DNA of 64,000 bases from positions 2,874,440 to 2,938,439 of the forward strand of contig OY843611.1 of NCBI GenBank assembly GCA_963692995.1, read 5' to 3'. Source of the stretch: Dehalococcoidia bacterium. GTDB lineage: Bacteria > Chloroflexota > Dehalococcoidia > Lucifugimonadales > UBA3495. The notes below the pieces were generated by a model. The model was not told the origin of the DNA and did not search any database. It saw only the letters and a list, made by a program, of their open reading frames with translations. Both the position numbers and the translations under genes were made by a program. This document shows, one piece after another, positions 16,034 to 47,805 of the stretch (positions are counted from its first letter, which is position 1; each line of letters opens with the position of its first letter).

Positions 16034-16057
16034 TGAACCAAAAGGCCGGAGGCTGCG

Positions 16058-22875: not shown

Positions 22876-23505
22876 ATGGACATTATCATCAACATAATCT
22901 GGGACGGCGGCAAGTGGGTGGTGGGCATTGGCGCCGCTGTACTAGTGATAGCGCTGCTGATTAGCGTGGCTCGTTATGGAATGTCCGCGGGCAATCCCCA
23001 GTCGGCCGCCTCGGCCCGGGCGGCCATGGTCGCCTGCCTGTTTGGCCTGGTCGCCCTGCCTTCGGTTCTGGTAGGCTATCGGCTTTTCTATGCCGACGTC
23101 ATCGCGCCCAATACCGGCAGCGATGTCGCCGTCTTTGAGGTTTCGTGCAATCGCATTTTGCAACGGCAACTGCAAGCTCGGCCAAATGTCGATACAAAGG
23201 GGGAGGTGGATCAGTTAATTAGAGCAATACAGTTGCAGAAGCAGGATTGCGCTAAGGATGCCTGGTCATTGACCCCTTTGAAGAGCAATGCGAGCTTGTG
23301 TACCACACCCTCTAATGGAGATGTAGCAACTTTTCTTCCGCTAGATTCAAACATACCTTTGAAAGAAGCTGTGGGTGCTGAAGGAATCGGGCGCGCGCCC
23401 GGATATATTGTGGTGGTATTTGCGCATGGTAGCAGTAGTGGACTGACGGCTGCGAATGATTGCTGGGGGTACTCCGCTGATCTGGGCCAATGGGTCGCCG
23501 GTTGA
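22876..23505 (+). CDS. small two-TM membrane protein (209 aa) with a compositionally distinct C-terminal domain; possibly VirB2/TrbC-like
   Basis: The N-terminus has two hydrophobic helices (WVVGIGAAVLVIALLISV and MVACLFGLVALPSVLVGY). The C-terminal ~110 codons (about 23170-23400) have much lower G+C than the flanks. Confidence 0.55.
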   Translation: MDIIINIIWDGGKWVVGIGAAVLVIALLISVARYGMSAGNPQSAASARAAMVACLFGLVALPSVLVGYRLFYADVIAPNTGSDVAVFEVSCNRILQRQLQARPNVDTKGEVDQLIRAIQLQKQDCAKDAWSLTPLKSNASLCTTPSNGDVATFLPLDSNIPLKEAVGAEGIGRAPGYIVVVFAHGSSSGLTAANDCWGYSADLGQWVAG

Positions 23506-28988: not shown

Positions 28989-29163
28989 AGGACCCGCCGG
29001 CTATCCCGAAAACCGCCCAGAGGCCCGGAGCGGCCCCGGAACCGCAGCAAAGGGGAAATCCCCAAAGAATGCCCGAAGGCCAGCGAGGGGCGTTTCCGGG
29101 CTATTCCAGGCCCGCTACGGATCAAGCCGGACGCCCAATTCGCCCCAGCGCCGCTAAAAACGC

Positions 29164-29198
29164 GAATGGGCCGGACTACGTTACTTTCCGGCCCATTC
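29164..29198. promoter_or_regulatory. perfect 12-bp-stem hairpin 38 nt upstream of the Toprim/D5-like gene
   Basis: GAATGGGCCGGA (29164-29175), 11-nt loop, TCCGGCCCATTC (29187-29198). The T-run (GCGTTTTT) is on the minus-strand side only. Confidence 0.4.
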
Positions 29199-29235
29199 CT
29201 TGCCCGCTCACCGACACCCGCGAAGGACAGAAAGC

Positions 29236-31911
29236 ATGGCAACTACATCGTATCAGAAACTCGCCCATCCCGACAATATCGCCCGCTGGCTCCGCGGCCG
29301 CAAGATCGGCGCCAACGACTGGCGCATTCCCCACCTCTGCGGCGGAGAACGCGCCCTTTCCGATAACCCCGGACTGAGCCTGTCCCTGGACAAAAATGGC
29401 CGCACGATTTTTTACTGCCACTACGGCTGCGACCCCGACGATACCAGAGCCGCCCTGGCGCCCTTCGCCGTCGGCCGAGGCAAGGTTCCTCCGCCCATCG
29501 CCCCGCGCCGCTCTTCGCGCAACAACGGCGGCAGCAGCAGCGGCAACGGCGGCAACGGCGGCAGCAGCGGCAACGGTAGCAACGGCGGCAACGGCAGCAG
29601 CAGCGGCAACGGTAGCAACGGCAGCAGCAGCAACGGCAACGGCAATGGCAGCAACGGCGGCCCCTCTTTCGCCCCCGGCAATCACCCCTGCCCCCAGTGC
29701 GGCAACCCCGCCGGGTTTCAGGCCCAGTCCGACCCCCGCTCCGGCTGGCCGATCCTTACCAGCCTCTGCTCCTGCGCCCTTTCCTACTCCCGGATGCTCG
29801 CCGCCCTGCCTCCCGCCGTCGGCGCCGCCTGGCAAGCCTGGGCCGATTACGCCACCGGCGCCGGCTCCCGCCGCATTATCCGCGCTTTTCCCGAAACCGC
29901 TAAATCCGGCAAATCCAAATCCCGCTGGTCCGGCAAAGGCCCTCTGGCCGGTCTGCAACCCCGCCGCTGGCTTCCCGATGCCCCAGCTCAGTCCATCATC
30001 CTCGCCGAAGGCGAAAAGGCCGCCGCCGCCGTCCATTCCGCCCGGCTCAACCTCCCCATCGTCGCCGCCAGCCTCCCCGGCGCCGCCGCCATGGCAACCG
30101 CCGACTACTCCCCCTTCGCCGGATGCGATATCACCGTCTGGCCCGATAACGACGCCACCGGCCAGGCCGCCGCCCAACGCGCCATCGCCGCCCTCTACCG
30201 CGCCGGCGCCGCCACCGTCCGCATGGTCTCCCCCGACGAATGCGCCCGCTTCCTGCCTGCCGACGCCGCTACCGTCGGCTGCGACGCCGCCGACCTGGAC
30301 GCCGCCCTGGTCCGCCTCCTGATCCAGCGCGCCGCTACCGCCGATCCCCCAGTGGAAAAGGACGATCCCTATATGCAGCCGCTACCCTCCGATCTCCTCA
30401 ACTCCGCCAGCCTGCAAGGCGAAAAACCCACCTGCGACGGCACCATGCTCCGCATGCTCTGCGCCGACCAGGGCAGCGGTCTCCTCTTCGCCGCCGCCGC
30501 CGCCGGCTCCCCCGACCAACTCCTGGTCAGCGACGACACCGGCGTCTGGCGGGCCGATACCGGCGAACTCCGCTACCGCGTCCGCGCCGCCGCCTACCAC
30601 TGGGCCGCCGCGGCGCAAGAAGCCGCCGACGCCGGACGAGTCAAGCCCGCCTACGCCCGACAAGTCAAAAACTGGGCGCAGTCCTGCGAAAACGCCGCCG
30701 CCCAAGACCGCGCCCTCGCCTCCGCCGGCGCCGTCTATCACAGCCTGGCCGCCGCCGGCGCCCTCCCCGCGCAACTCCTGGTCAGCTCCGGGGACGCCCT
30801 GGATCAGGACGACGCCAGCCTGGGCGCCCGCAACGGCGTGATCAATTTGCAAACCGGAGAACTCCTCACCGGCGACGCCGCCCGGGCCCGCCGCGTTACC
30901 CGCCGCATTCCCGACGATTACCACCCCGACGCCGTTCATCCCACCCTGGATCGCCTGCTGGAACTGCTGCCCGCCCAGGAAGCCGACGGCCTGTTGGATA
31001 CCTTCGCCTTCGCTCTCGGCGGACAGCCGGCCGGACAAATCGTTCTGCTGGCCGGCCCGCCTAACTCCGCCCGCAGCCTGCTGTCCGCCGCCGTAACCGC
31101 CGTCCTCGGCGACTTCCGCAGCCGCGGCTACGCCATGTCCCTGCACCCCGACGCCCTGCTCCGGCCCCGCGCCAGCGGCGGAGTCTATAGCCACAGCCAT
31201 CAAGCCTGGCTGGTCGGCGTGCAAGACGCCCGCGTCGCTACCCTGCCCAACTTCGACCCGGAGCCGGACGCCGCTCTGGACACCGGCCTGCTCAGCCGAC
31301 TGGACGGCAGCAAAGTCCTCGCCCTGCGCGACGTGGGCGACCGCGCCGGCGTCTCCCGCCCCGCCGCCGCTACTCTCTTCATCCCGGTCAGCGAGCAAAC
31401 CCTCGACGAAACTTTTCTCGATACCTACGGCCGCGAACTGGCCGGACGCCTGCGCGTCTTTCACTTCCCGCCGCAACCCCCCGGACGGGCCGAGGGCAGC
31501 GCCGCCGACTTGCTCCGGGAACCGGCCGGCCGGCAAGCCCTGCTGGCCCGGCTGGTCCGGCGGGCCGCCGCCCTGACCGACCGCCAGGACCCGCCGCAGC
31601 CGCCGACGTACCGCGAGCCGGAAGACGCCGCGCCGTCGCCGCGGGAACGCGCCGCCCGGTGGATCCGCGACTGCGTGGAAGTCACCGGCGACCCGGCCCA
31701 CCGGATCAGCGCCGCCGAACTGATGCGGGCCGCCGCCCAGGCCCTGGGCGGCGACGGACGGGAACGCGCCGGCGGGCTGACCCGCAAAGCGCTGCTGTTT
31801 CTCCTCAAAAGCCACGACCCCAACTTCCCGGAATCGGCGCCGCTGCGGATGGGATCGCAAGTGGCGCGGGGCTACGCCGGCGTGCGCCTCAAGCCGAAGG
31901 CGGGATCGTGA
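29236..31911 (+). CDS. primase-helicase-like protein (891 aa): N-terminal Zn-binding region, Gly/Ser/Asn low-complexity insert, Toprim domain, and a D5/P4-alpha-like NTPase region with a degenerate Walker A
   Basis: ATG at 29236 (MATTSYQKL). Cys/His clusters are HLCGGE...FYCHYGCD and CPQCGNP...CSC. Toprim motifs are IILAEGEKAAAAV ... ITVWPDNDATGQAAA. The P-loop position reads LLAGPPNSARSLL, where GxxxxGK[ST] is expected. Confidence 0.65.
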   Translation: MATTSYQKLAHPDNIARWLRGRKIGANDWRIPHLCGGERALSDNPGLSLSLDKNGRTIFYCHYGCDPDDTRAALAPFAVGRGKVPPPIAPRRSSRNNGGSSSGNGGNGGSSGNGSNGGNGSSSGNGSNGSSSNGNGNGSNGGPSFAPGNHPCPQCGNPAGFQAQSDPRSGWPILTSLCSCALSYSRMLAALPPAVGAAWQAWADYATGAGSRRIIRAFPETAKSGKSKSRWSGKGPLAGLQPRRWLPDAPAQSIILAEGEKAAAAVHSARLNLPIVAASLPGAAAMATADYSPFAGCDITVWPDNDATGQAAAQRAIAALYRAGAATVRMVSPDECARFLPADAATVGCDAADLDAALVRLLIQRAATADPPVEKDDPYMQPLPSDLLNSASLQGEKPTCDGTMLRMLCADQGSGLLFAAAAAGSPDQLLVSDDTGVWRADTGELRYRVRAAAYHWAAAAQEAADAGRVKPAYARQVKNWAQSCENAAAQDRALASAGAVYHSLAAAGALPAQLLVSSGDALDQDDASLGARNGVINLQTGELLTGDAARARRVTRRIPDDYHPDAVHPTLDRLLELLPAQEADGLLDTFAFALGGQPAGQIVLLAGPPNSARSLLSAAVTAVLGDFRSRGYAMSLHPDALLRPRASGGVYSHSHQAWLVGVQDARVATLPNFDPEPDAALDTGLLSRLDGSKVLALRDVGDRAGVSRPAAATLFIPVSEQTLDETFLDTYGRELAGRLRVFHFPPQPPGRAEGSAADLLREPAGRQALLARLVRRAAALTDRQDPPQPPTYREPEDAAPSPRERAARWIRDCVEVTGDPAHRISAAELMRAAAQALGGDGRERAGGLTRKALLFLLKSHDPNFPESAPLRMGSQVARGYAGVRLKPKAGS

Positions 31912-31922
31912 GGACGGGGGAC

Positions 31923-32172
31923 GCCGCAATGGGGCCAGGAAGGGCCGGAAAGGGGCCGGAGACGCCGGGAACGCCGCAAAAGGGCGCAAAGGTAGGGAAG
32001 GGCGGCAAAGGGGCCTCAGAGACGCCGGAACGCCGCAAAGCGGGGTCGCCAGACCGCAGCGGGGCCAGAAGGCCAGGGAACGCCGCAAGGGAAGGATCGC
32101 GCCGCCGCCGCAAAGGGAGGTCAGGGATGTCGCCGGAACTGCCGCCGCAAGGGGACGCTGGGGATGCCGCAA
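31923..32172 (+). repeat. left array of GCCGCAA(A/G)GG motifs (7 exact plus 2 variant copies, + strand orientation)
   Basis: GCCGCAA occurs at 31923, 31973, 32032, 32082, 32107, 32144 and 32166. Variants gcgcaaagg (31984) and gcggcaaagg (32002) are also present. Spacing is irregular. Confidence 0.85.
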
Positions 32173-32258
32173 AGGGACTTCGGGAAGGCCGCCAGGGGAA
32201 CGGATCGGGCCGGGCAAACCAGCCACGCCGCCGCCCTCAAATCGGCCTCCGCAGCGGC

Positions 32259-32304
32259 CTTCAAACCGGCCCAAAACCGGCCCTCAAACCGGCCCAAAAT
32301 CGGG
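32259..32304 (+). repeat. four tandem CAAA(A)CCGGCC-like units abutting the inverted-repeat core
   Basis: cttcaaaccggcc caaaaccggcc ctcaaaccggcc caaaatcggg. Confidence 0.75.
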
Positions 32305-32306
32305 TT

Positions 32307-32416
32307 TGTAACACTTGTAACAGGAAATCCTTAATTAACTATAGAGCTGAGAATTTAAAATCGAAAATTCAGTTTAACCTAAAGCACTATAGGGATCTCC
32401 TGTTACAAGTGTTACA
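32307..32416. other. candidate origin / DNA-unwinding core: a perfect 19-bp inverted repeat flanking a 72-bp, 29% G+C spacer
   Basis: TGTAACACTTGTAACAGGA (32307-32325) and its exact reverse complement TCCTGTTACAAGTGTTACA (32398-32416). The spacer has 21 G/C of 72 by my count. It contains GAATTT-n8-AAATTC and two ACTATAG copies. Confidence 0.6.
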
Positions 32417-32475
32417 TTTGCCAAAATATTAGAACAAATCACCCTAATTTGTTCGGGAAATTAGTACATTTGTCC

Positions 32476-32892
32476 TGTAACAAAAGTGTTCGGAACACGC
32501 CCCTCCAGCTGTTACAAAGTGTTACAAATCGGCCTCTCCTGTTACATTTTGGCCGCTTTTTTAGAATTCGTATGGGAAAACGGGCGCAAAAAACGCTTTT
32601 TTCAGCCGCAACGCCGCCTTCTCGACGAAAAAAACCGCATTTTTTGCGCCTGCGGAGCCGCTGATCCGCGTTTTTAACCCCGTCAGAGGCGCTTTTTACT
32701 GAGTTTTGCCCGTTTTTTGCGCCTTGGCCAGGCTGTTACGCGCCGTTTTTGCCGCTTTTTGCGCCCTGGACATGGCAAAATTTCGGCCCTAAACCCCCAT
32801 TTCGGCCCCTGAGGGCGGGAATTTGGCCCCAAAACCGGGATTTTGTAACACTTTGTAACAGCTGGAACCCCCCGTCCCGCCCTCCTGTTACA
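32476..32892. repeat. TGTAACA/TGTTACA heptamer (iteron-like) field, including a second perfect 19-bp inverted pair
   Basis: GCTGTTACAAAGTGTTACA (32508-32526) and its exact reverse complement TGTAACACTTTGTAACAGC (32844-32862). Single heptamers lie at 32476, 32540 and 32886, with a variant TGTTACG at 32734. TCCTGTTACA recurs at 32398, 32537 and 32883. Counting the core pair, there are at least 11 heptamers in 600 bp. Confidence 0.85.
32583..32765. repeat. TTTTTGCGCC boxes and closely spaced T-tracts (possible bent DNA)
   Basis: GGCGCAAAAAA (32583-32593) is inverted relative to TTTTTTGCGCC (32640-32650). Further copies lie at 32713-32723 and 32756-32765. T4-6 runs recur, several only ~9-10 bp apart. 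Confidence 0.7.
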
Positions 32893-33083
32893 CCCCGCAA
32901 CGGCCCGGCGCCGCCCCTTCCGGAGGGCCTGCGAAGGCCAGCCCGCAGCCGCTTTCCGGCCCGCTTTTTGCCCTCTCCTGAGGGCGCCGCTGCCCTTGAT
33001 CCGCGGTGGCCGCTGGACCGGCTGGGCGGCCCTTTGCAGCAGCATTCCGGGGGGTCTCGGCGGCGTCCCCGCCGACCTCGGCC

Positions 33084-33495
33084 TTGCGGCTACCGGCCCC
33101 GTCTGCACCGGCCTTGCGGCAGCGTCTCCGCCTACTCCGGCTTTGCGGCTATCGGCCCGGCCCACCTCGGCTTGCGGCACCAGCCTTGCTCAGCCCGGCC
33201 TGTGGCAGTGGCCTCGCCGGCATCGGCCTTGCGGCAGCGTCTCCGCCTACTCCGGCTTTGCGGCTATCGGCCCTGCCTACCTGGGCTTGCGGCTACCGGC
33301 CCCGTCTGCACCGGCCTTGCGGCTACCGGCCCCGCCGGCCTCGGCTTGCGGCTACCGGCCTCGCTTACCCCCGCTTGCGGCAGCGGCCCCGCCCACCTCG
33401 GCTTGCGGCGGCGTCTTCGCCTACCTCGGCTTGCGGCAGCGTCTCCGCCTACTCCGGCTTTGCGGCTACTGGCCTCGCTTACCCCGGCTTGCGGC
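33084..33495 (-). repeat. right array: 14 copies of TTGCGGC (the reverse complement of the left-array GCCGCAA core) at ~29-bp spacing, organised as higher-order tandem repeats
   Basis: TTGCGGC occurs at 33084, 33114, 33143, 33172, 33229, 33258, 33287, 33317, 33346, 33375, 33403, 33431, 33470 and 33489. Inter-core segments also repeat (agcgtctccgcctactccgg x3; taccggccccgtctgcaccgg x2). All three + frames are open, which fits repeats rather than coding. Confidence 0.9.
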
Positions 33496-33936
33496 AGCGG
33501 CCCCGCCGGCCTCGCCGGCCCCGGCCTCGTTCAGCCGAAATCCCGCGTCTTGCGGGATCAGTAATGACGTGTTCCGTCACAATAAAGTCAGGGAGTGCTG
33601 ACTTTCACCTCATACGAGGCGCTGTCGGAGATAAATCCGCTACAATTGCCCCTGCTTGACGATGCTCTTCGTCGCCAATAAGCCGCGGCCCAACGCCTTC
33701 CGGCTAACTATTCCCGCTCAGCCAACGCTTTCCGCCAGGAAGATGCCGGAACTCAACCCCTTCCCCAATCCGGCCCGGCCCGTCTTTCCCCTTTCACTCG
33801 GCGCCGGGCCAATGCGGTTGCGCTTTCCCGCCGTCAACCGCCCCAATTGCGACCTTTTCCGCTACTCCGGTCCGCAACCCCTAAACTATTCCCCTCATTG
33901 CCGTCCGCAATCCCTGCGCCTCAGTGCAGCCCAGCA

Positions 33937-34695
33937 TCAAATTCCAGCGCTCAACTCAGCAAACGCCGCCAAGTTCGACAATCGGACATCAGCATCCTGC
34001 GCCGTCCGCGACAGCCGGCCAGTCCACGCCGCTCCCGCCAGCCTACTAGCCCACGCCGCTTCCGTTTCCCTGAACTCGGCGCAATAAATCAGCGCCGCCC
34101 GCGACAGTTCCGCATCGGCAGCCACCGCTTCTTGCGCCGCCTCAATGAGGTCCGGCAGTCGTTGCGCCGCCGCGTCTCCCTCGGCCGCCGAAGCCGGGTC
34201 AGGGCGCAGCAAGGTCGCCAAGGCCGCCAGGGCTGCGCCGGCCGCGCCAGCCTTTTCCGACAACGCGCCGGGAACCGCCAGCTCAACGTCATAGGCGCCG
34301 GCCACTAGCGCGTAAGCGTCGCCCAGTCGAAAGCCGCCCTCCAGCGCCGTGTCCGTAGCCAGGGCGAAGTTAATTTCCTCCGTCGCCGCCGCCGCCCGCC
34401 GGTTCGCCAATGACAGCGCGTTTGCCGCGTCCGCTCCGGCGATGCCGGCAATCCCCAGGATCGCCGCGGTGTAGGCGCGCGACATGGCGACGGCGTACAA
34501 GGCGTATTGGGACAAGTTCTCTTCCCCGGCGTGGTCAAAAGCGCCATCTTGCAGCTCCGTCAGGTAATCGGCGAAAACGCACTCGCCAGCCAGGGCGCGG
34601 GCCGCGTAACCAGCCAGATAATGACCGCTTTCATCCATCGCTTCCGCCTGGGCCAGCGCCGCTTCCCAGCGGTCAGTAGGCATTGTCATAACCAT
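33937..34695 (-). CDS. Ala-rich hypothetical protein (252 aa)
   Basis: ORF with a GGGGGA-type SD and GC3 bias. No family recognised. Confidence 0.55.
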   Translation of the reverse strand: MVMTMPTDRWEAALAQAEAMDESGHYLAGYAARALAGECVFADYLTELQDGAFDHAGEENLSQYALYAVAMSRAYTAAILGIAGIAGADAANALSLANRRAAAATEEINFALATDTALEGGFRLGDAYALVAGAYDVELAVPGALSEKAGAAGAALAALATLLRPDPASAAEGDAAAQRLPDLIEAAQEAVAADAELSRAALIYCAEFRETEAAWASRLAGAAWTGRLSRTAQDADVRLSNLAAFAELSAGI

Positions 34696-35172: not shown

Positions 35173-35468
35173 TCAGCAACCCGACGTTGCCTGAGCTGCC
35201 GCTCCAATCCGCTGAACTCTCATCCCAACTAGCTGCCGGCGCTGCGTGAATGTTCCGTCAGCGTTCATCCAGTCGTACAACTCCACGTCCACGGCGGCCA
35301 GCGAGTTCACCAGGGTCCGGATGCTGTCGTAATACTGCTGCTCCCGCAATGCGGCGATGCGGTCGTTCTCGTTTATGGGGCTATTGCTGTAATGGCTGCT
35401 CGGCTAATTTTGGCGACGGCGCCACGCGGCAGTCTCAGCCGGCATTCCCTTGGGCAAAGAGCGTACAT
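35173..35468 (-). pseudogene. small ORF pair or frameshifted gene, paralogous to 39243-39458
   Basis: A 31-codon ORF (35373-35468, MYALCPRECRLRLPRGAVAKISRAAITAIAP) is followed, in another frame, by a 76-codon open frame (35173-35403, ...NENDRIAALREQQYYDSIRTLVNSLAAVDVELYDWM...). That frame has no ATG near its 5' end. The paralog at 39243-39458 carries the LCPKECRLRLPRCAVAQIS and LRERQQQ parts in one frame. Confidence 0.35.
35408..35459. repeat. 52-bp dispersed repeat, copy 1
   Basis: ttttggcgacggcgccacgcggcagtctcagccggcattcccttgggcaaag. It has 3 mismatches to copy 2 at 39359-39410 by my alignment. Confidence 0.85.
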
Positions 35469-35534
35469 CGCGTACTGGAAAAGGTCTTCCCTGCCATTAT
35501 TGTTGCCGGCCGGGTCGTTTCATGCCAGTGATCG

Positions 35535-35753
35535 TTATTCATCCGCATTCTCCGGGCTGCCGCCCGCGCAGTAGGCGTCGGCCTGCGCTTGATGGATTCG
35601 CCTGGCGTCTTGCTGACTATCGGCCGGCACTACCCCGTTGCAGCGCTGGCACCGCCATATGCCCATGTACCGCAACCGATTGCCGGATGCGTGAAACTGC
35701 CGGATTACCGGCTTGCCCAGGTCGTCAACGATTGGCGTCATGGTGAACGGCAT
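35535..35753 (-). CDS. small zinc-ribbon protein (72 aa), distant member of the PYHC family
   Basis: ATG at 35753 (MPFTMTPIVDD) follows GAGAGGA. Motif YMGIWRCQRCNGVVPADSQQDARRIHQ. Confidence 0.55.
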   Translation of the reverse strand: MPFTMTPIVDDLGKPVIRQFHASGNRLRYMGIWRCQRCNGVVPADSQQDARRIHQAQADAYCAGGSPENADE

Positions 35754-36115
35754 GCTTGGTCCTCTCTTGCGGCGAAGGTCGCATAATGCGGGGCGCGCTG
35801 CCGGATAGCAGAGACGGCGGCGCGGCAAAGTCGCTCGGGCGCGTTTCCAGCCGGCGAACGGGTCAGCCGCACGCGCGGCAGAATGCGGCGCTCTCAGCGC
35901 CCCGCCGACATTGGGGCTGTACGGGGGATAGCGACGCCGGACGGCGGCGATAGCCGGGACCCTGGAGATACGAGCCGCCGCGCCGGCGCTCAATGAAGGG
36001 GAGCCGACGCCTTTTCTTGCCGGGCGCGGTCGGCGGTCATAGCAGTACACCTTCTCCCCGTAGCGATTTGGGGTTGCTTCGCCGACGGCCCCCGGCGCCG
36101 GGGCTAGTCGGCGGG

Positions 36116-36601
36116 TTAGCCGTCGGCCAGCGCTTCGGCCTCGGCTTTGGCTTTGGCGGCCAGGACTAAATCGCGGCCGGCTTCGCCGGCTTGCCGGTTG
36201 GCCTCAATCAAGTCATCGATGGATTGGTCCGTGTCTTCGATAAGTTCGATACCCTCGTGGCGGGGAAGTCCCACGCAGACGGTCTTCTCATAGGCGTCAA
36301 GGGCGGCCCAGGCCGCCGTTGCCAGGGCGTGGGCGAAAGGGTCGTTGCCTTCACCCTTGTCGCGGACGTAAGAGCAGGCGGCGGCCGCCGTTTCTACCGA
36401 CATCACGGCCACGCTGAGGGCGGTTGCGGCATGGGCGAGGGCCGCGGAAGCGTCTTTGGCGTCACGGGCGTTCAAGGCGGCTTTGGCGGTCTCAGTCCAG
36501 GGCTTACGAACCTCCCGGAACTCCCGGAGCGCGGCTTCGCCGGTGGGCTTGTTCCAGGGCTTTGCTTCCTCCCGGACGGCGGTTTCGGTAGTTTTCTTCA
36601 T
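36116..36601 (-). CDS. hypothetical protein (161 aa)
   Basis: TAAGGAGA upstream of the ATG (MKKTTETAVREE...). Ala-rich and helical-looking. Confidence 0.65.
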   Translation of the reverse strand: MKKTTETAVREEAKPWNKPTGEAALREFREVRKPWTETAKAALNARDAKDASAALAHAATALSVAVMSVETAAAACSYVRDKGEGNDPFAHALATAAWAALDAYEKTVCVGLPRHEGIELIEDTDQSIDDLIEANRQAGEAGRDLVLAAKAKAEAEALADG

Positions 36602-36643
36602 GTTCTTTCGTCTCCTTATGCGTAGCGGCTTGATTGCGTCGCT

Positions 36644-36895
36644 TCAGTATCCGACTGCACAGTCCGGGAAGCGATCCGCCAGCGTGTCGATGGCGATGGT
36701 CGGCCCCGGTATGCTGCTGCCGTCCTGGAATACCCAGTAGAGGTCAATTCCGTAGATGACGTTTTCCAGGGCCACCATGCAAAACACCTGCCGGATGATC
36801 TCCGGCGCCTGCTCTGCGTATTCCCGTTGCAGTTCTTCGCCGTGGGCGTTGATAACCCGGTCGATGCCGTTCATCGCGGATAGGTCTCCCATCAT
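36644..36895 (-). CDS. small hypothetical protein (83 aa)
   Basis: AAAGGAGGAA lies immediately upstream of ATGATG at 36895 (MMGDLSAMNGIDRV...). The longer track ORF (to 37213) is upstream run-on. Confidence 0.6.
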   Translation of the reverse strand: MMGDLSAMNGIDRVINAHGEELQREYAEQAPEIIRQVFCMVALENVIYGIDLYWVFQDGSSIPGPTIAIDTLADRFPDCAVGY

Positions 36896-37002
36896 TTCCT
36901 CCTTTTGAGGCAGCGGCGCTCCGGCCGGCCGGCCCGGAGCGTGTTTGTTGCTGACGCCGGACGGCGATACGCCTGACCCACGTGGTTCTGACGCCAAATC
37001 CG

Positions 37003-37284
37003 CTACCGCGCCTTCCTGCTTGGCAACCCGTAGCAGATGACCTGTTTCGTCTGTTTCTCTTCTGCGCAGGCCGCGCAGGAGGCTTGGTACAGCCCGTAGT
37101 CGCTGCGTCTTCCCCGGTGGCCGGCGGCATACGTCAGTACTACGCCCTTGTGATCTGCCAGGCTGTGCCGGCAATAGCGGCAGTGGTACGGCTCGATGTA
37201 GATCGGGTGCCATTGCACCGCGGTTCCCTTGCCGCTGATAAAATTAATGTCGATGCGACTCGGTCTGGTCGTTTTGCTGCCCAT
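37003..37284 (-). CDS. PYHC zinc-ribbon family protein (93 aa)
   Basis: Motifs IYIEPYHCRYCRHS ... CAACAEE. GAGAGAAAGG upstream of the ATG. Confidence 0.55.
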   Translation of the reverse strand: MGSKTTRPSRIDINFISGKGTAVQWHPIYIEPYHCRYCRHSLADHKGVVLTYAAGHRGRRSDYGLYQASCAACAEEKQTKQVICYGLPSRKAR

Positions 37285-37446
37285 ACCTTTCTCTCGTGTC
37301 CGCCATTACTGCTCACCTGGCGCTGCGTCCGGCGCCGGACGCAGCGCCAGGCCAACCCAGCGCCGGATCCAATCCTCAGCCGCCGGCGCGAAGGCCTCAA
37401 CGCCGCTCCGGCCGCCTGGGCCGCCGTCGCTACCGCCAATTTCGTT

Positions 37447-37656
37447 TCATTGGACCTTGCTGTGCAGTTCCATCGCAATCGGGATAGCCTCCTCAAGCAT
37501 CGCCAGCGTGTCCCTGCTGACGATAGGATAGTGCATACTCGCATACTGCAACTCCTGACCGATGTGCGCCGCCGTGAGTTCGGGGGTTTCCCTGACCATC
37601 TGCTCAATGGCTGCTATGTAAGTCGCAACCCTGACGGCTGCCTCTTTTATCTCCAT
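37447..37656 (-). CDS. small hypothetical protein (69 aa)
   Basis: ATG at 37656 (MEIKEAAVRVATY...) overlaps the upstream stop (TAATG). Confidence 0.5.
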   Translation of the reverse strand: MEIKEAAVRVATYIAAIEQMVRETPELTAAHIGQELQYASMHYPIVSRDTLAMLEEAIPIAMELHSKVQ

Positions 37657-37820
37657 TACCTCACCAGCCCTCGCGCTACCACCGGCGGGAACTCCGGGTC
37701 GGTGACTGCCCGGTGGCAGAACTCCGTGGTAGATACCACGATGGTCAGCGGCATTAGCCGCCAGTCCGGTGCGGCCCCGCACTCGCCGCACGTGATAGTG
37801 AAAGCGCCAAGTGGTGTCAT
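37656..37820 (-). CDS. small zinc-ribbon-like protein (54 aa), not in the ORF track
   Basis: My translation reads MTPLGAFTITCGECGAAPDWRLMPLTIVVSTTEFCHRAVTDPEFPPVVARGLVR. GGAGG lies 7 nt upstream. Its ATG overlaps the upstream stop (ATGA) and its stop overlaps the next ATG. Confidence 0.5.
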   Translation of the reverse strand: MTPLGAFTITCGECGAAPDWRLMPLTIVVSTTEFCHRAVTDPEFPPVVARGLVR

Positions 37821-38023
37821 TCCGAGCCTCCGCAGCGGCCGCCGGCTAGGTCGTCGTGCATGGCTCTCGCCTCATCTGCCGAAGTCGCCTTGACGCCTAC
37901 CCCGCAAATGGCGCAGTGGTAGGGTTCGATTATTAGCAGCAGTCGTTGAAATAAGTCCGGGCATTTTCGTATCGCCACCAGGCGAGGTGAGCCATTTTCT
38001 CGGCGATGCGCTCGGCTCCCCAC
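37817..38023 (-). CDS. PYHC zinc-ribbon family protein (start uncertain)
   Basis: IIEPYHCAICGVGVKATSADEARAMHDDLAGG closely parallels the C-terminus of 40250-40588 at both protein and DNA level. The 5' part overlaps the preceding gene by ~90 nt, so the true start may be internal or non-canonical. Confidence 0.5.
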   Translation of the reverse strand: MGSRAHRRENGSPRLVAIRKCPDLFQRLLLIIEPYHCAICGVGVKATSADEARAMHDDLAGGRCGGSE

Positions 38024-38268
38024 AGGGCGGATAGGGTCAAGTTTTGCAGCGGGGTACGGGCCGGATGCCGCTGGCGGCGGAGCATCGGGCTGTGGCCGGG
38101 ATGCGCCTTGGCGTAGGCAATCGCCGCGGCCTTGAGATGACGGTGGAAGGCGTCAGCGGCGTCCGCCTCGCGGGACAGCATCGTCAGGTCAGCTTCTGCC
38201 ATGGGCGTGGCGAAGCCGACGCAGGTGGCGGCGGTCAGCAGCGCAGGGGGCAGTGGCTCAGGGGTCAT
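37933..38268 (-). CDS. hypothetical protein (111 aa)
   Basis: GAGGAGA upstream of the ATG (MTPEPLPPALL...). Confidence 0.55.
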   Translation of the reverse strand: MTPEPLPPALLTAATCVGFATPMAEADLTMLSREADAADAFHRHLKAAAIAYAKAHPGHSPMLRRQRHPARTPLQNLTLSALWGAERIAEKMAHLAWWRYENARTYFNDCC

Positions 38269-38460
38269 GGTCAGTCTCCTCTCGCTGCGCGCGGCGGTCT
38301 GACACCGCTAGATCAGGTCAACGGAGCCGCCGGGCAGCGCCGGTTCATCGGGTCTATCCCGGTGCGCAGGGAAACTACCGGGGGCGGCCGGCTATCGCGG
38401 CAGCGTGGCGGGGTCTATCCCGATGCGATAGGCACGTCCCTGTGCGCCTGCAAAAGCCCC

Positions 38461-38679
38461 TTATTGTGGCTTTTTACCTCCGTCATTTTCCGTGCTCCCT
38501 TCAGTAGTCAGTCGGTTCTCCAATCTCACTGTGTCCCAATCGGCCATGCTCAACTGGCAAATTTTGGTACACACCGGCCTGCGCCGGGGATGCTCGGCCA
38601 CCGGCGGTCCGATGTCATACCAGCCGTTAACCGGCCTTTCGTCGTTGCACATAAAGCAGCGTCTTTCGTCGGCAATCAT
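38461..38679 (-). CDS. small Cys-rich protein (72 aa)
   Basis: ATG at 38679 (MIADERRCFMCNDERPVNGWYD...VCTKIC) with AGGGGA 7 nt upstream. Confidence 0.5.
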   Translation of the reverse strand: MIADERRCFMCNDERPVNGWYDIGPPVAEHPRRRPVCTKICQLSMADWDTVRLENRLTTEGSTENDGGKKPQ

Positions 38680-38689
38680 GGTCATTCCC

Positions 38690-38932
38690 CTACCGTTCAC
38701 CTGTCGCCATCGTCGGATACGAAATCGGGTCGGCTACCTCGCGGCGGCAGTACTCGGCGGTATGCCACTGCGGGCCCAGCCCGAACTGGTGCCACAGGAC
38801 GTCGTGGCAATTCGCGCAGATGTCAATAACGTTGCAGTACTCGGCGTCTATCCGCTGGCTCTCGGCGTGGACGGTAATGCCGCCTTCCTCGGCCAGTAAC
38901 TCGCCGCAACTTCCGCAGTCTTGTCTTTCCAT
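38690..38932 (-). CDS. small zinc-ribbon protein (80 aa)
   Basis: AGGAGA upstream of the ATG. Motif MERQDCGSCGELL...CANCHDVLWH. Confidence 0.6.
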   Translation of the reverse strand: MERQDCGSCGELLAEEGGITVHAESQRIDAEYCNVIDICANCHDVLWHQFGLGPQWHTAEYCRREVADPISYPTMATGER

Positions 38933-38993
38933 ATCAATCTCCTATTCGGTTTTTAAGTGGTCGGATATTCCATTAGACTATTTCTCCGAGCCA

Positions 38994-39209
38994 TCATGGT
39001 CGCCGGCCGGGTCGTCCAGGGCCGCTATAGTCGGCGAAAGTCCGCTCCCCGGCCAAGGCCAGCAACGGCTGGCCCGTCCAGCAATGACCGCCGTGATACA
39101 GCAGCGGCGGGGCAAATCCTTTCACGTAACGCCGGCATTGGGCAGCCTTCTGCGGTGCAGATAACGCCGGGCCGGGACAGCTCCGTAACGACGGGAGGCA
39201 ACCTGGCAA
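38994..39209 (-). CDS. small hypothetical ORF (71 aa, TTG start), weak
   Basis: Track ORF. It contains YHGGHCW, reminiscent of CPAHCWNHG in the next ORF. There is no good SD. Confidence 0.3.
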   Translation of the reverse strand: MPGCLPSLRSCPGPALSAPQKAAQCRRYVKGFAPPLLYHGGHCWTGQPLLALAGERTFADYSGPGRPGRRP

Positions 39210-39242
39210 CGGCTCCGGCCGGGTCGCCGATGCGGGGTTTAG

Positions 39243-39698
39243 CTATTCGGGCCGGGCCGGCGTCCCTTCCAGCGCGGCCAGCAGGACCGCCTGCTCTGCT
39301 TCCGGCAGCGCTGGGGCCAGCCGGTCAAACTGCTGCTGCCGCTCCCGCAATACGCTGATTTGGGCGACGGCGCAACGCGGCAGTCTCAGCCGGCATTCCT
39401 TTGGGCAAAGGGGTACTGCCGGCGGTTCTCCGGGAAGGACGGCAATCGGCCGCCCGCTTTATTCTCCCGTAGCGCCCCGGACCATCGCCAGCTCAGCCGA
39501 AAGCCTTGCGCCAGCCGGATCGGAAATGAAGGATTGCGTCGCCGGCTGTTTGGCGGCGTGCGAATGGGGCGGCATTCCCGCGGCATTCCGGGGGGACTTA
39601 TCGGCGGACGGGCAAAGTCTGCTCGTCTGCCTTAGCCTGCCGACATTTCCGTGATTCCAGCAGTGCGCGGGACACTCGCCCTGCGTCGGAATCGTCAT
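39243..39698 (-). pseudogene. Cys/His-rich small ORF interrupted by an in-frame TAA (or two abutting ORFs); the 3' part is a paralog of 35173-35468
   Basis: The ATG at 39698 gives MTIPTQGECPAHCWNHGNVGRL... up to a TAA at 39459-39461. The same frame stays open for 71 more codons (SGRPIAVLPGEPPAVPLCPKECRLRLPRCAVAQISVLRERQQQFDRLAPALPEAEQAVLLAALEGTPARPE) to a TAG at 39243. Confidence 0.4.
39359..39410. repeat. 52-bp dispersed repeat, copy 2
   Basis: tttgggcgacggcgcaacgcggcagtctcagccggcattcctttgggcaaag. See copy 1 at 35408-35459. Confidence 0.85.
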
Positions 39699-39723
39699 AC
39701 TCGATGTCGTGTGAGCGTTTCGG

Positions 39724-40047
39724 TTAGAAGTCTCCTTCGTACCGGGCGGCGGAAGCCTCTGCCTGGTTCAGGGCGATGCCCAAAATGTCGGCTCGGCCGG
39801 CCTTTTGGGCCATGATGTTCTTGAGAGTACGCCATGCGGCTGATACCCCCAGTCCGGCGGCTTGGCCCACGTCTCCCTTGGCTTCTCGGGCGCAGGCCAC
39901 TGCCAGGGCGTCTATGTCGATGCTGGCATTAGCGCGTTCGTCTCTGTCGTATCCTGCTTCCTAGAACGTCATGCGGAGGGACCACTTGGCGGCTTCGAAG
40001 GCGCAGGTGGCGTGTTCGCTGTCTGTGAGGCTTTCATTGAGTACCAT
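39724..40047 (-). pseudogene. small ORF interrupted by an in-frame TAG (28 codons + TAG + 78 codons)
   Basis: The ATG at 40047 follows GAGGAAA. It reads MVLNESLTDSEHATCAFEAAKWSLRMTF, then TAG (39961-39963). The same frame continues EAGYDRDERANASIDIDALAVACAREAKGDVGQAAGLGVSAAWRTLKNIMAQKAGRADILGIALNQAEASAARYEGDF to a TAA at 39724. Confidence 0.4.
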
Positions 40048-40249
40048 GTGTTTTCCTCGCTGGTCGTCAGGCCCGCCGGTGGTGTGGTTCTTTTCTCTGA
40101 TGAGGTCCGTGTCGTGGGAGGGGAGTCATGTGTCGGTTTCTTGAACTGCCACCGGGGATTCGGCGGGTTGCCTGTTGTGCCGTGGCTTGGCTGGTTTCGA
40201 CGCCGGATCGCTGGCCCGGCGTGGGCTAACTGGCCGACTGCCGAGGTCG

Positions 40250-40588
40250 TTATACTGCGCCCCGGTGGCGAATGCCAGTCAGGTAGTCGTGCAGGGCATT
40301 CGCTTCTGCCGCTGAGGTCGCCTTGACCACTAACCCGCAACGGGTGCAGTGGTAGGGTATGATTCGCATCTCAATGGGCTTTCCATCGGTGGCAAATCCC
40401 GTCCGCACGTCCGTACAGCGGTGGTGAGACTCTATTGGTGTGCCGTCCGGCATCACTACTCCGAAGTCTGCACCGCAACTGCGGCAGTGGAAAAGCGTGA
40501 TTGGGGCGCCGTCTAAGCCAATGCCCCGCCAGGGGGAACCGTCGGCGGAACTGGTCAGATCGGGTTCGCCGACGGGGACAGTTGGCAA
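40250..40588 (-). CDS. double zinc-ribbon protein (112 aa), PYHC family
   Basis: TTG start with TGAGG upstream. Motifs are TLFHCRSCGADFGVV...HHRC and IIPYHCTRCGLVVKATSAAEANALHDYLTG. Confidence 0.6.
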   Translation of the reverse strand: MPTVPVGEPDLTSSADGSPWRGIGLDGAPITLFHCRSCGADFGVVMPDGTPIESHHRCTDVRTGFATDGKPIEMRIIPYHCTRCGLVVKATSAAEANALHDYLTGIRHRGAV

Positions 40589-40608
40589 CCAGTTGCCTCA
40601 ACTAGGCG

Positions 40609-41730
40609 TCATGCGTCCTCAGGGTCCTCATTAGTTATGACTGCTGCAATTTGCGGATTCAGCAAACGCCACCTTTGTCCCACTCGTTCGAGATCCCCTA
40701 TTGCAACTACTGGCTCTTTCCTCGTGTGAGCTTCAATCGCCTTGTGGTAATCAGATTGGCTCAACACCGCGACGACAGACCGAAGGTTCCCTGCGACGGA
40801 TGTTCGCAAGGTCACGGTTCCCTCAGTGTCGTCGTCATCACGTTTTAGCGTTTGTACGGAACACAGCAACTCAACATCCGGCTGCGGCTCCCGGTTGCGG
40901 AAAATCCGGGACGCCTCGCTCAGCATCGGCACGTCGTCCTGGGTAAACTGCACTGGACGTTGCGACAGTGTCACCGGCCGTGTTCTAGCCCAAGTGAACC
41001 GGATGTCGAGCGCGGAGAAGGGTTCAATCATCTGAACCAGCGCGTCACACAGGTTGGCGCTAATACCATCACTGATGGCGTTAGCGAATGCGTCTTTATC
41101 GCCGCTTACCGCCTTTTCGGACGCCTGCTTGGTCGCATGCAAAGCGTCGTACAGCCGTGTAGTTATTCGCCTTGCAACTGGGGGGTCAGCGTCGCCGGCG
41201 TCCTCAAGCAGAGGGCGTTGCAACGGCGGCACGATTACGGGAGGCAACAAAGTAACTATAAAACTGCCCGGCTCGGTTTGGCCCAGACGAACTTGCGACA
41301 GGAAATCCACGGCTTCCCGGTTGGCCCCGGCCCGGTAAAGCAGCTGGGGACTGTTCAGTGAACAGGCCGCTGCCAAAAGCATATCCCGCGCGCCGGAGAT
41401 CAAGCTGGCGCCTTCGTTTATATCAACCGTGCTATCGTCTTCAGCCACCCTCACCCGAATGACGTCCCGGTCCGTGGTCATTAAGTCTTTGCAGAGCGCA
41501 ATCTCGCTGATACCGGCAACGCGAGCCAGAATCTCGACTAACTGCGCGGTCACGCGTCCGTAGTCGCCGATGTCTCTAGTTCGGGGAACCAGTAATTCCG
41601 GCAACCCGACACCGGTGTACACATCGGAATGAGAACCAAAGATGTCAGTTTTGGTCCAGCCTTGACCACGTATGTAGGCCGCCAAGGCCGCGGGCGACAC
41701 TGCTGATCGGTCGTTTCGGTCTGGGATCAT
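40609..41730 (-). CDS. hypothetical protein (373 aa), downstream partner of the DUF4365 gene
   Basis: Its start overlaps the upstream stop (ATGA at 41727-41730). G+C is lower than the surroundings. No family recognised. Confidence 0.7.
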   Translation of the reverse strand: MIPDRNDRSAVSPAALAAYIRGQGWTKTDIFGSHSDVYTGVGLPELLVPRTRDIGDYGRVTAQLVEILARVAGISEIALCKDLMTTDRDVIRVRVAEDDSTVDINEGASLISGARDMLLAAACSLNSPQLLYRAGANREAVDFLSQVRLGQTEPGSFIVTLLPPVIVPPLQRPLLEDAGDADPPVARRITTRLYDALHATKQASEKAVSGDKDAFANAISDGISANLCDALVQMIEPFSALDIRFTWARTRPVTLSQRPVQFTQDDVPMLSEASRIFRNREPQPDVELLCSVQTLKRDDDDTEGTVTLRTSVAGNLRSVVAVLSQSDYHKAIEAHTRKEPVVAIGDLERVGQRWRLLNPQIAAVITNEDPEDA

Positions 41731-42242
41731 GGTAGTTGCGAGATCCTCCCAGTGCGGGACTGTTCCATGAGCGCCTTCAGTCCGTCAACATCAAACCGGT
41801 TTTGTTTCGGAATCCGGACGGTCACGCTAGTCTCGTTGTCGGTCTCATCCCGTCCCAACAGATTCAGCCAGTAGGCACGGCGCCTTATTATTAACTCGTC
41901 ATCGGCAATGGTCGCCCATCGTAGCGGGTCTTTTGGCAAGTCAAGCACCACCAGCAAACGCGGGGTCTGGGTTTCGATGCGCAGAAGGTCGTAGTTCCGA
42001 CGCAGTAGCGGGAAGGCTACACGGTCATCGCCGACATCGTGCAGGTTGACCGTCGCCTTCAACTGAAGTTCAAGGGCCGGCCGCATATCGCCCCCGGCCT
42101 GTATACGCAAGTCTATGCCGTCCCGGTCCCTCTCGTACACAGCGGTGACGTAACCGGCCCGCGCCGCTACCACTTGGGCATAGGCCATGGAAAGCAACTC
42201 CTCCTGGTCAGGACCAGTTAGCAGGCGGTCCTCCGACAACAT
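41727..42242 (-). CDS. DUF4365 domain protein (PD-(D/E)xK-like, 171 aa)
   Basis: EELLSMAYAQVVAARAGYVTAVYERDRDGIDLRIQAGG...ALELQLKATVN fits the DUF4365 pattern I recall (e..a.ayv.a.a...G......D.GiDl.i......l.vQlKat). GGAGAGG upstream of the ATG. Confidence 0.65.
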   Translation of the reverse strand: MLSEDRLLTGPDQEELLSMAYAQVVAARAGYVTAVYERDRDGIDLRIQAGGDMRPALELQLKATVNLHDVGDDRVAFPLLRRNYDLLRIETQTPRLLVVLDLPKDPLRWATIADDELIIRRRAYWLNLLGRDETDNETSVTVRIPKQNRFDVDGLKALMEQSRTGRISQLP

Positions 42243-42465
42243 GGCGCCTCTCCGAAGCGAGATCGTGGCATGTACTCGCCGTCCGCAACTCGTAGCCGGC
42301 GGCTATAGCGCTAGGCAGGCTCGCCACACGCCGCCGGTTAGGATCAGATTTTTGCCGACTGGTTGAGTTGCCGCGTATGACCGCCTCGCCACACCAGGCT
42401 AGGCGCGGCGATTGTAGCAAGCGATTGTGCAGGTTGATAGTACAGGGGATTCGCGTCAGCAACCC

Positions 42466-43083
42466 TCAGTCCCTCGGCTCAATGAGCGTCGGCTCCCCCA
42501 GGAATTGGATCGTCGCGCCGTCGGCGCCGTCGGTGTTTAGCCCGGCGCCTTCCAGCAGAAAACTGTGCGCCTTAGCGTCGTCCAGTTCCGTTACCAGCGT
42601 CCGGTGGCGATCCGGCGCTACCGGCAGCACGGTCAGCAGGGTGATGCCGTCTGCGGAATGAGCAAAGACGCTGAGCCGGTATTCTGCCAAGTTCGCCTCC
42701 GGGGGCCAGCTGACCGCCACTACGCCCGGTTCGTCCGTCCAGTCGGCGGTCAGGCGCGCCGGCGGTTCCGGCGTGGGCGTGGGTGGCGGCTCCGGCGTCG
42801 GCGGCTCTGCCGTGGCCGCGGGCGGCGGCTCCGGCGTGGCCGTGGGCGTCGGCTCCGGCGTGGCCGTGATGGTGGGCCGGGGAACCGCAGTCGCCGTCGG
42901 CGCAATGGTCGCCGCACGGGTCGCCGCTGGCTCCGTCGGCGCCGCCGCCGTCGCGCTGGCCGCGGTGGGCAGCGGACGGGCCAGCGGCTCCGCTGGGGTC
43001 GTGCAGCCGGCGGCGCTCAGCGCGACGGCAATGACGCCGCCAATGAGCAGGAAGCTGGGGCGAGGGAATGGGACGCGAAACAT
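42466..43083 (-). CDS. lipoprotein with a Pro/Thr/Ala-rich linker and an FN3-like C-terminal domain (205 aa)
   Basis: ATG at 43083 (MFRVPFPRPSFLLIGGVIAVALSAAGC, with lipobox) follows GGAGGA. The domain sequence LTADWTDEPGVVAVSWPPEANLAEYRLSVF resembles the N-terminal domain of the LRR protein. Confidence 0.65.
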   Translation of the reverse strand: MFRVPFPRPSFLLIGGVIAVALSAAGCTTPAEPLARPLPTAASATAAAPTEPAATRAATIAPTATAVPRPTITATPEPTPTATPEPPPAATAEPPTPEPPPTPTPEPPARLTADWTDEPGVVAVSWPPEANLAEYRLSVFAHSADGITLLTVLPVAPDRHRTLVTELDDAKAHSFLLEGAGLNTDGADGATIQFLGEPTLIEPRD

Positions 43084-43245
43084 GGCAAATCCTCCGGGGA
43101 CAATATTACGGGTGCAACGACGATTGTTCAAATCTCTGGCCGGACGTGGGCCGCGCCGATCCCGACGGCAATCAAGAAATCAGCCCCGCCGCGACTGCGA
43201 CAGGGCTGACCGGCGACGCCGCCGGATCAGGCCGGCGCCAGCGGC

Positions 43246-44499: not shown

Positions 44500-44571
44500 A
44501 ACAATGCACCTCCTGGCATTTTGTTCAGACAGATAACCCGACGCCAATGCTGCCGGCCGGCAACGCCGGGG

Positions 44572-45303: not shown

Positions 45304-45468
45304 GCTGACTCCTTTCTTCCTTGAGGGTAACGAAAAAGTCTTGGCGAGATGCTGAGACTTTTGGTCAGATGGCGCGACGTGGCGAGAACGCAATTTGATC
45401 AACGCTTTTGCCGAACTTGGAGCGAGCAGGGGCGTAGCAACAGCGCTATTAGGCAGCGCTTGTGGTTG

Positions 45469-47147: not shown

Positions 47148-47167
47148 GATGGCACTATCTGGGCTGG

Positions 47168-47197
47168 ATGTTAGTTAGAGGAAGGGCAATTTGTCAA
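47168..47197 (-). promoter_or_regulatory. candidate sigma-70-type promoter for the ImmA/IrrE-DUF4411 operon
   Basis: On the minus strand: TTGACA (47192-47197), 18-bp spacer, TAACAT (47168-47173). It lies ~20 nt upstream of the ATG at 47147, with no SD, so the transcript may have a short leader or none. Confidence 0.3.
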
Positions 47198-47207
47198 ACG
47201 GCATGGT

Positions 47208-47736: not shown

Positions 47737-47805
47737 GGCTTGATCTCCTTGGATCAGTTCAACGCTTTTGCGAAATTGGTTGCGGAGTATTTTTGCGGTT
47801 GGGCT

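Follow-up and report, generated by a model that had tools for sequence, protein, structure and literature searches.

A putative SaPI-type replication origin flanked by mirror-oriented repeat arrays in a large conjugative element of a Dehalococcoidia bacterium

The replication origins of Staphylococcus aureus pathogenicity islands (SaPIs) comprise 6-12 penta- or hexanucleotide iterons that directly follow rep and surround an AT-rich centre, with two or more iterons per side that face in opposite directions (PMC9371898). These iterons are bound by the C-terminal winged helix of the SaPI Rep protein, and neither binding nor melting requires ATP (PMC9371898). The winged helix of the P4 alpha protein likewise binds origin repeats, and the origin of pRN1 is found downstream of its rep gene (PMC4234260). 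Here, we analyse a 64-kb stretch of a Dehalococcoidia bacterium genome (contig OY843611.1; 64,000 nt, hereafter the window), in which a 2-kb non-coding gap at 31912-33936 follows a gene encoding a primase-helicase, referred to herein as Rep. Judged from its sequence, this gap is reasonably likely to be a cis-acting replication origin of a large conjugative element. This reading draws on the position of the gap after Rep, on an AT-rich core with opposed TGTAACA boxes, and on the recurrence of the core palindrome beside distantly related initiators. The core is best explained as an origin of the known SaPI type, and the large outer arrays of GCCGCAA and TTGCGGC motifs that surround it as an unusual extra layer with a candidate role.

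The origin core, its recurrence elsewhere and the Rep protein

The gap contains no credible gene and is located between two converging genes. It starts 12 nt past the stop codon of the Rep gene, and on its other side the 3' end of a gene encoding a 252-amino-acid (aa) protein without a family match (33937-34695, minus strand) faces the right array. The putative origin core is a palindrome of 110 nt, I1 (32307-32416), which begins 396 nt past the Rep stop codon. Each of its 27-nt arms, which are 93% complementary, contains two TGTAACA boxes, and the arms are separated by a 56-nt spacer. The boxes at 32307 and 32316 are on the plus strand and those at 32401 and 32410 on the minus strand, and they therefore point in opposite directions. 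As single-stranded DNA, I1 folds with a z-score of -6.95, and a long stem-loop is possible. The GC content drops to 30-35% at 32300-32500 within a context of 70% GC, and 11 of the 12 TGTAACA copies in the window fall between 32307 and 32892, compared to 1.1 copies expected for the window as a whole.

Multiple nested inverted repeats are present in the gap along with I1. Additional TGTAACA boxes are found within 32476-32546, at 32476 on the plus strand and at 32510, 32520 and 32540 on the minus strand. A perfect 25-nt inverted repeat, I2 (arms 32504-32528 and 32842-32866), has TGTAACA boxes in its arms, including two on the plus strand in the right arm, beyond which a further box lies at 32886 on the minus strand. 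The 313 nt enclosed by I2 contain four exact GCGCAAAAA boxes and T-tracts; the inner boxes (GCGCAAAAA / GCGGCAAAAA; 32703-32767, minus strand) were found by direct reading of the sequence to have T-tracts about 10 nt apart. A smaller palindrome, I10 (32583-32650; GGCGCAAAAAACGCTTTTTT / AAAACCGCATTTTTTGCGCC), includes a lone GCCGCAA at 32605, and short tandem repeats with a period of 11-12 or 23 nt (CAAACCGGCCC; 32215-32303) occupy the space between the left array and the core. We also considered a DnaA-dependent origin, which was rejected as no DnaA-box-like site with two or fewer mismatches was found within 31912-33936.

Palindromes of this kind are found beside other members of the Rep family. 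A Rep relative with 35% identity (P0014) is encoded on a 5.5-kb circular contig (L328), in which an inverted repeat at 4210-4351, 110 nt after the Rep stop codon, has 41-nt arms with three TGTAACC boxes each and a 60-nt spacer. In a second family member (L326), a GTTACA-box palindrome adjoins Rep. Three others (L001, L245 and L327) have no such boxes, which indicates that the box sequence is not universal in the Rep family. In L001 (European Nucleotide Archive (ENA) ctg549360_0x_c), the gene for a 33%-identical Rep is directly followed by a TAGTGTAGGGA-type palindrome in place of TGTAAC boxes; the sequence of this contig recurs every 8439 bp, indicating a concatemer assembly of a small circular replicon.

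Viral contigs (IMG/VR) were then searched for the pattern TGTAAC-N3-TGTAAC-N70-100-GTTACA-N3-GTTACA, with a hexamer of the same composition serving as the control. The double-box palindrome was present in at least 120 viral contigs (L329-L448), as compared to two for the control hexamer, and the spacers were AT-rich and diverse among the matches listed. In six diverse examples, the large open reading frame (ORF) ending beside the palindrome encodes a superfamily 3 (SF3)-type primase-helicase, and the unrelated subfamilies found beside palindromes comprise DUF927+HTH_56, D5_N+DUF5906+Pox_D5, NrS-1-like and PrimPol+VapE proteins. Extra boxes in the flanks are oriented like those of the neighbouring arm (left, 75:24; right, 43:71; 39 non-redundant cases among the matches listed), which suggests that convergence of opposed box arrays on an AT-rich centre is the norm for such origins. 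No paper naming the TGTAAC box was found in the literature.

The Rep gene itself is a plus-strand ORF of 903 aa (29200-31911), with database proteins of 890 or 891 aa starting at approximately 29236. Its predicted layout consists of an N-terminal zinc-finger-like motif, a Gly/Asn/Ser-rich linker, a Toprim domain, D5_N, an SF3 helicase fold, and a C-terminal winged helix. Pfam identified D5_N (5.6e-9) and Toprim_3, PHROGs assigned the protein to DNA primase families, and there was a weak match to TIGR01613 ('P4 family'). An AlphaFold2 model of 704 residues, with a confidence score (pLDDT) of 83, had African swine fever virus C962R, mpox E5 and vaccinia D5 as its top Foldseek matches (E = 1e-14 to 1e-11). 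The modelled structure places Rep within the D5/P4-alpha family by fold, with a D5_N collar and an SF3 helicase fold. The last 100 residues were modelled as a winged helix (pLDDT 90) whose best Foldseek matches were the DNA-binding domains of RFX5 and RFX1 (E = 9e-4; template modelling scores 0.62 and 0.74); additional winged-helix matches, including the P4 origin-binding domain (1KA8, E = 1.9), were non-significant. Rep is consequently predicted, from this structural model, to have a DNA-binding domain of the winged-helix type at its C-terminus.

The Walker motifs of Rep are degenerate. Walker A reads GPPNSARS (residues ~615-625) and the Walker B region (residues ~675-690) ends in TLPN, while all 31 aligned relatives have GxxxxGK[ST] and [S/E/T/D][E/D], respectively, at these positions. 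This suggests that Rep may not be a working helicase and makes ATPase motor activity doubtful. The ratio of nonsynonymous to synonymous substitution (dN/dS) is ~0.1, indicating purifying selection, and Rep looks by its sequence like an ATPase-dead initiator. Word-indexed protein searches returned three and two matches and gave Rep a near-unique look; an exhaustive search revealed a family of 2042 representatives at E <= 1e-3, with 98 cluster representatives below 1e-30 at 30-37% identity. Neither the Rep protein nor a two-sequence alignment retrieved a confirmed relative from the plasmids, genome_contigs, viral_contigs and metagenome_contigs sets, and the single match in the phage database was a Microbacterium phage primase/polymerase/helicase (20% coverage, 29% identity).

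These features are in keeping with the SaPI arrangement and with that of phage-inducible chromosomal islands (PICIs) more generally. The origin region follows directly after rep or a fused pri-rep gene, with the repeats starting 12 nt past the stop codon, and the TGTAACA boxes of I1 provide two short iterons per side, in opposite directions, around an AT-rich centre. The initiator is of the ring-helicase type with a C-terminal winged helix. In contrast to SaPIs and PICIs, Rep is of the D5_N/Toprim type with degenerate Walker motifs, the region spans 2 kb rather than ~0.2 kb, a second iteron family (7-9 and 14-15 copies) surrounds the box core, and the host is a large conjugative element with type IV secretion genes rather than a phage satellite. 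We propose that Rep would bind the TGTAACA boxes through its winged helix and open the AT-rich centre in the same way as SaPI Rep and P4 alpha. Unwinding past this initial opening would probably rely on a host helicase, because the Walker A lysine and Walker B glutamate of Rep are replaced.

Other systems share parts of this organization. P4 alpha similarly combines a Toprim primase, a D5-type SF3 helicase and a C-terminal winged-helix origin-binding domain with short repeated boxes. The P4 boxes are TGTTCACC, which differ from the TGTAACA boxes here, and in P4 the crr element is located just downstream of the alpha gene and contains the same octamer iterons as ori. The structural match of Rep to the P4 origin-binding domain is weak, and no two-site ori/crr layout is evident at this locus. 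The ORF904 protein of pRN1 is also an SF3 primase-helicase initiator with a stem-loop origin of ~100 nt just downstream, comparable to the 110-nt, stem-loop-capable I1, although pRN1 has a prim-pol domain instead of Toprim and lacks iterons. Finally, iteron plasmids such as P1 (incA) and RK2 carry extra initiator-binding arrays outside the minimal origin that are used for copy control. The auxiliary repeats of those plasmids are origin iterons, whereas the outer motif here differs from the core box and is arranged in strictly mirror-oriented arrays.

The outer repeat arrays

The original prediction, which was made from the sequence of the window, described seven exact and two variant plus-strand motifs on the left and fourteen reverse-complement copies on the right, and all of these counts were borne out. 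The left array (31923-32172, plus strand) contains exact GCCGCAA copies at 31923, 31973, 32032, 32082, 32107, 32144 and 32166, with variants GGGCGCAAAGG at 31984 and GGGCGGCAAAGG at 32002. Its spacing is irregular (22-59 nt), and its plus strand is purine-rich, with a GC skew of +0.24 and an AT skew of +0.67. The right array (33058-33514, minus strand), whose plus strand is rich in pyrimidines, contains 14 exact copies between 33084 and 33495. Successive intervals in this array are 30, 29, 29, 57, 29, 29, 30, 29, 29, 28, 28, 29 and 29 nt, which agrees with the predicted spacing of ~29 bp and one double gap; the 57-nt gap contains a degenerate copy, CTGTGGC, at 33200, and the irregular pair that had been described at the end of the array was not seen among these intervals. 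Tandem Repeats Finder, which was used to determine array periods, reported a period of 29 nt (15.6 copies) for 33058-33514; it also returned higher-order periods (115 and 174 nt), which correspond to the higher-order tandem units noted previously. The window contains 59 copies of GCCGCAA in all, compared to 28.5 +/- 5.4 expected, and none of 100 shuffles of the 64-kb sequence reached this number. No match to the array region was found by blastn against plasmids.

The heptamer is the sole invariant block of the repeat unit. Of the 15 units on the right, 14 have it unchanged, as do 7 of the 9 on the left, while the spacer columns vary. The two arrays also differ in the sequence flanking the heptamer (..AACGCCGCAARGGG on the left and ..GCCGCAAGCCGAGG on the right, read on the motif strand) and in their spacing, which is irregular on the left and a regular 29 nt on the right. 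Collectively, an invariant heptamer amongst differing spacers, flanks and spacing argues for constraint on the heptamer, and against a simple or recent inverted duplication or neutral drift.

We also counted motif polarity using a relaxed motif, GC(C/G)GCAA or GCGCAAA. The plus-strand copies, 11 in number, are all found to the left of 32612, and the 18 minus-strand copies, together with one looser variant, are all found to the right of 32642; the one exception is a looser plus-strand variant at 32894. The polarity of the motif family flips inside palindrome I10, between 32611 and 32643. The general form of the earlier claim, that oriented motifs flip at a central site, was upheld, and such motifs are probably read by a DNA-binding protein; the mechanisms named with it, namely FtsK-orienting polar sequences (KOPS), clt/TraB and R1 parC, were not supported, as detailed below. 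The original prediction also overlooked both that the gene ending 12 nt ahead of the left array encodes a primase-helicase initiator and that the core is of a recognizable origin type. As the arrays are strictly mirrored about a point 265 bp to the right of I1, we interpret them as a second, lineage-specific family of iterons associated with the origin.

In L328, three TTGCCGCC copies in matching orientation lie to the right of the palindrome, a weak parallel. GCCGCAA can also be aligned as a variant of the TGTAAC box in two ways (TTG-YRR-C or G-Y-AA) that imply opposite relative polarity, and each alignment is marginally significant. A survey for same-motif arrays, which the original prediction had proposed, was performed using three successive TTGCGGC-N20-24 units and matched only unrelated arrays in metagenomes and viral contigs, none of which were opposed. 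Most of these have a period of 27 or 30, a multiple of three, and are thus probably coding; a few are non-coding 29-nt arrays. Non-coding arrays of 29-30 nt with GCCGCAA(A/G) were observed in unrelated metagenome contigs of 38-61% GC (L079:2086-2237, L012:9388-9620, L039:1572-1700 and L153:2372-2620). Those of L012 and L039 look mutually related, and these arrays may simply reflect selection by the search pattern.

Two additional interpretations of the arrays were set aside. A structured RNA is unlikely given that both arrays fold worse as RNA than shuffled controls (z = +1.7 and +3.7) and match neither Rfam families nor tRNAs. A coding function for the right array is also unlikely, since its 29-nt period is not a multiple of three and all three plus-strand frames are open across it. 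Just beyond the right array there are two short hairpins, at 33540-33558 (ATCCCGC..GCGGGAT) and 33584-33605 (AAAGTCAG..CTGACTTT), with runs of T or A after the second on either strand. These hairpins may be terminators of the converging transcripts.

What the arrays may do

Under the origin reading, the GCCGCAA/TTGCGGC arrays would represent a second, lineage-specific family of protein-binding iterons that is mirror-oriented around the origin. They would most likely hold many copies of an origin-associated protein, either Rep acting through another surface or another partner, and could serve in building or orienting the initiation complex, in titrating the initiator for copy control, or in both. 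Among the ~55 window ORFs scanned, no DNA-binding or partition family was found as a candidate for array binding. Tentatively, and with a rather low likelihood, the arrays could instead be a separate polar cis-system placed on a canonical box origin, for which we envisage two forms. In the first, the arrays would be an oriented landing platform along which an ATPase-dead D5-type initiator polymerises towards the centre, opening the DNA without a motor. In the second, they would act as a polar barrier on both sides of the origin, protecting it from the two converging transcription units or, in the integrated state of the element, from chromosomal forks. For SaPI/P4-type origins, neither form is known to have been described.

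Several observations weigh against the origin reading. The polarity switch lies ~265 bp to the right of I1, the AT-richest palindrome, and at 32611-32643 is off-centre with respect to this AT-rich box palindrome (centre 32361). The Walker A and B motifs of Rep are degenerate where those of every aligned relative are canonical, the element is seen in an integrated state, and no intact relative of the arrays was found among the relatives compared. A second opposed motif was seen, and then marginally, in just one of 121 TGTAAC-palindrome loci, and GCAAC-type boxes were not enriched around other TGTAAC origins. In addition, no opposed arrays of any heptamer were found among 80 viral D5-like loci. 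Taken together, these three comparisons indicate that the outer arrays are not part of the known origin type. Plus-strand GC skew also changes sign at ~43 kb and not at the arrays, being negative for all genes left of the origin and positive beyond this point irrespective of the coding strand. This origin-type switch is displaced rightward from the arrays by 2-10 kb, a distance that depends on whether or not 35.4-42.3 kb represents an insertion, and as evidence of origin use it is suggestive only.

An unlikely alternative to the origin reading is that the arrays form a partition centromere, binding a ParR-, ParB- or TubR-like protein, with the coated DNA being segregated and the origin just happening to sit between two centromere blocks. 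Long arrays composed of short repeats typify plasmid centromeres, and a 29-nt period does not correspond to whole helical turns, such that bound proteins would spiral as in ParR-parC filaments. Many window ORFs lack a family and could hide a novel partition system, but no ParA-type Walker motif is present in any frame of the window and no Par family was detected among the ~55 ORFs scanned. Furthermore, a centromere does not require mirror polarity centred on an origin, and both neighbouring genes end at the region, hence there is no par promoter or operator. The resemblance to the R1 parC centromere and promoter suggested in the original prediction is weak for these same reasons, with no promoter-facing genes and no par genes found.

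It is distinctly unlikely that the arrays are a polar barrier or insulator in the manner of Tus-Ter or RTP, at which a protein bound to oriented arrays stops replication forks, or the two converging transcription units, from entering or leaving the origin. The motif is in the sense orientation for the incoming gene on each side (Rep, plus strand, from the left; the 252-aa gene, minus strand, from the right), opposed polarity is the defining layout of a fork trap, and arrays that fold worse as RNA than shuffled sequences would not themselves be structured terminators. At the same time, no protein resembling Tus or RTP was detected, the C-terminal domain of Rep matches RTP only weakly (E = 0.4), and the 14 or more copies present here far exceed the number in known barriers.

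We regard a neutral minisatellite, in which slippage-prone repeats without function have expanded in a non-coding gap, as quite improbable. The heptamer is invariant while the remainder of the unit varies, and the same heptamer is kept in two arrays with differing flanks and spacing and exact mirror polarity, a rule that the inner variants also obey. These properties stand against the 115- and 174-nt higher-order units, which show recent segmental duplication, and the survival of relatives without the region, both of which would fit neutral expansion.

R1 parC, FtsK-KOPS and TraB-clt all involve short repeated or oriented DNA motifs that are read by a protein. The repeats of parC are found on either side of the par promoter, KOPS are scattered throughout a replicon, and clt is located at traB; none of these contexts was found at the arrays described here. 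When the arrays and the single central copy (32605) are excluded, GCCGCAA is close to its background frequency, with 37 copies compared to ~28 expected for the whole window. These copies have strand ratios of 15:4 (left) and 5:13 (right). The 210 composition-matched heptamers as a group have ratios of 884:680 on the left and 489:896 on the right, and GCCGCAA ranks 18th of 210. As this flip in bias is common to the composition-matched heptamers, it is attributable to compositional skew rather than to a guide motif. The TraD/FtsK-HerA-class ATPase proposed in the original prediction as the reader of the motifs was correctly recognized, being a 1045-aa coupling protein of the TrwB/DUF87 type (1984-5121); as a type IV coupling protein in which only TrwB_AAD_bind and DUF87 domains were detected, it has no FtsK-gamma-type DNA-reading domain that we could find. 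A KOPS- or clt-like guide that orients this ATPase for transfer or towards a resolution site is therefore extremely improbable, despite the polarity flip at a central site and the presence of the ATPase gene, given the skew, the 27 kb between this gene and the arrays, the similarly distant putative relaxase-like gene (5048-6682), and the fact that the arrays adjoin a replication initiator gene instead.

If correct, the origin reading would yield candidates for the origin and the initiator of a large conjugative element from a lineage without close plasmid or phage relatives in the reference sets, and would extend the SaPI-type layout of opposed iterons and an AT-rich centre just after rep to big type IV secretion elements. 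The TGTAAC double-box palindrome beside several different SF3 primase-helicase subfamilies should be of interest to replication specialists. Purifying selection on a Rep that has lost its canonical Walker residues would be consistent with an initiator that operates without a motor of its own, and a second iteron family in large mirror arrays around the core offers a testable case of layered origin control. None of these findings overturns current models.

Genomic setting and related copies

The window contains type IV secretion genes on both sides of the gap. Along with the coupling protein, family searches identified a TrbL/VirB6-like protein (18940-22791), a pilin (22876-23505) and a VirB4-like ATPase (54670-56994), and the relaxase-like gene is assigned on the basis of a weak Replic_Relax match. 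The Rep protein is recorded on a 3.29-Mb contig (3,293,860 bp), which together with the type IV secretion genes suggests a large conjugative element residing in the chromosome. On this contig, the source genome has two full-length Rep copies and one truncated copy (P0001, P0005 and P0004), indicating that the element is present more than once. The full-length copies differ at three residues, one being a serine in the Gly/Asn/Ser-rich linker.

Three contigs from two ENA assemblies, one of which is a 3.15-Mb chromosome, have DNA that is 95-98% identical over ~27.6-31.8 kb. These contigs and the third Rep copy of the source genome, which has the same truncated C-terminus as the three relatives, are decayed copies with a common 2.5-kb deletion from ~31741 to ~34250 that takes out the whole origin region and both flanking gene ends, including the 3' part of the 252-aa gene. 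The deletion junctions are at L002:7722, L003:11942 and L004:11933, with a short microhomology, GCCGC(CG)CCAG. The three relative contigs also lack 29048-29280 and 35432-42333.

Other genes in the window have unusual features. A 917-aa ORF (14135-16888, minus strand) matches sigma-70 regions 2 and 4 in its last 200 residues, and its long N-terminal part has no family match. Directly upstream of the VirB4-like gene, a 1734-aa ORF (49428-54632, plus strand) without a convincing family lies in DNA of 72-76% GC and has internal repeats at ~50.3-50.9 kb, as seen from multiple blastn self-matches via L004. The minus-strand block at 41727-49356 encodes DUF4365, DUF5131 (phage Gp37/Gp68-like), DUF4411 with Peptidase_M78 (IrrE-like), and a leucine-rich-repeat protein; the leucine-rich-repeat genes of this block are duplicated and vary among relatives.

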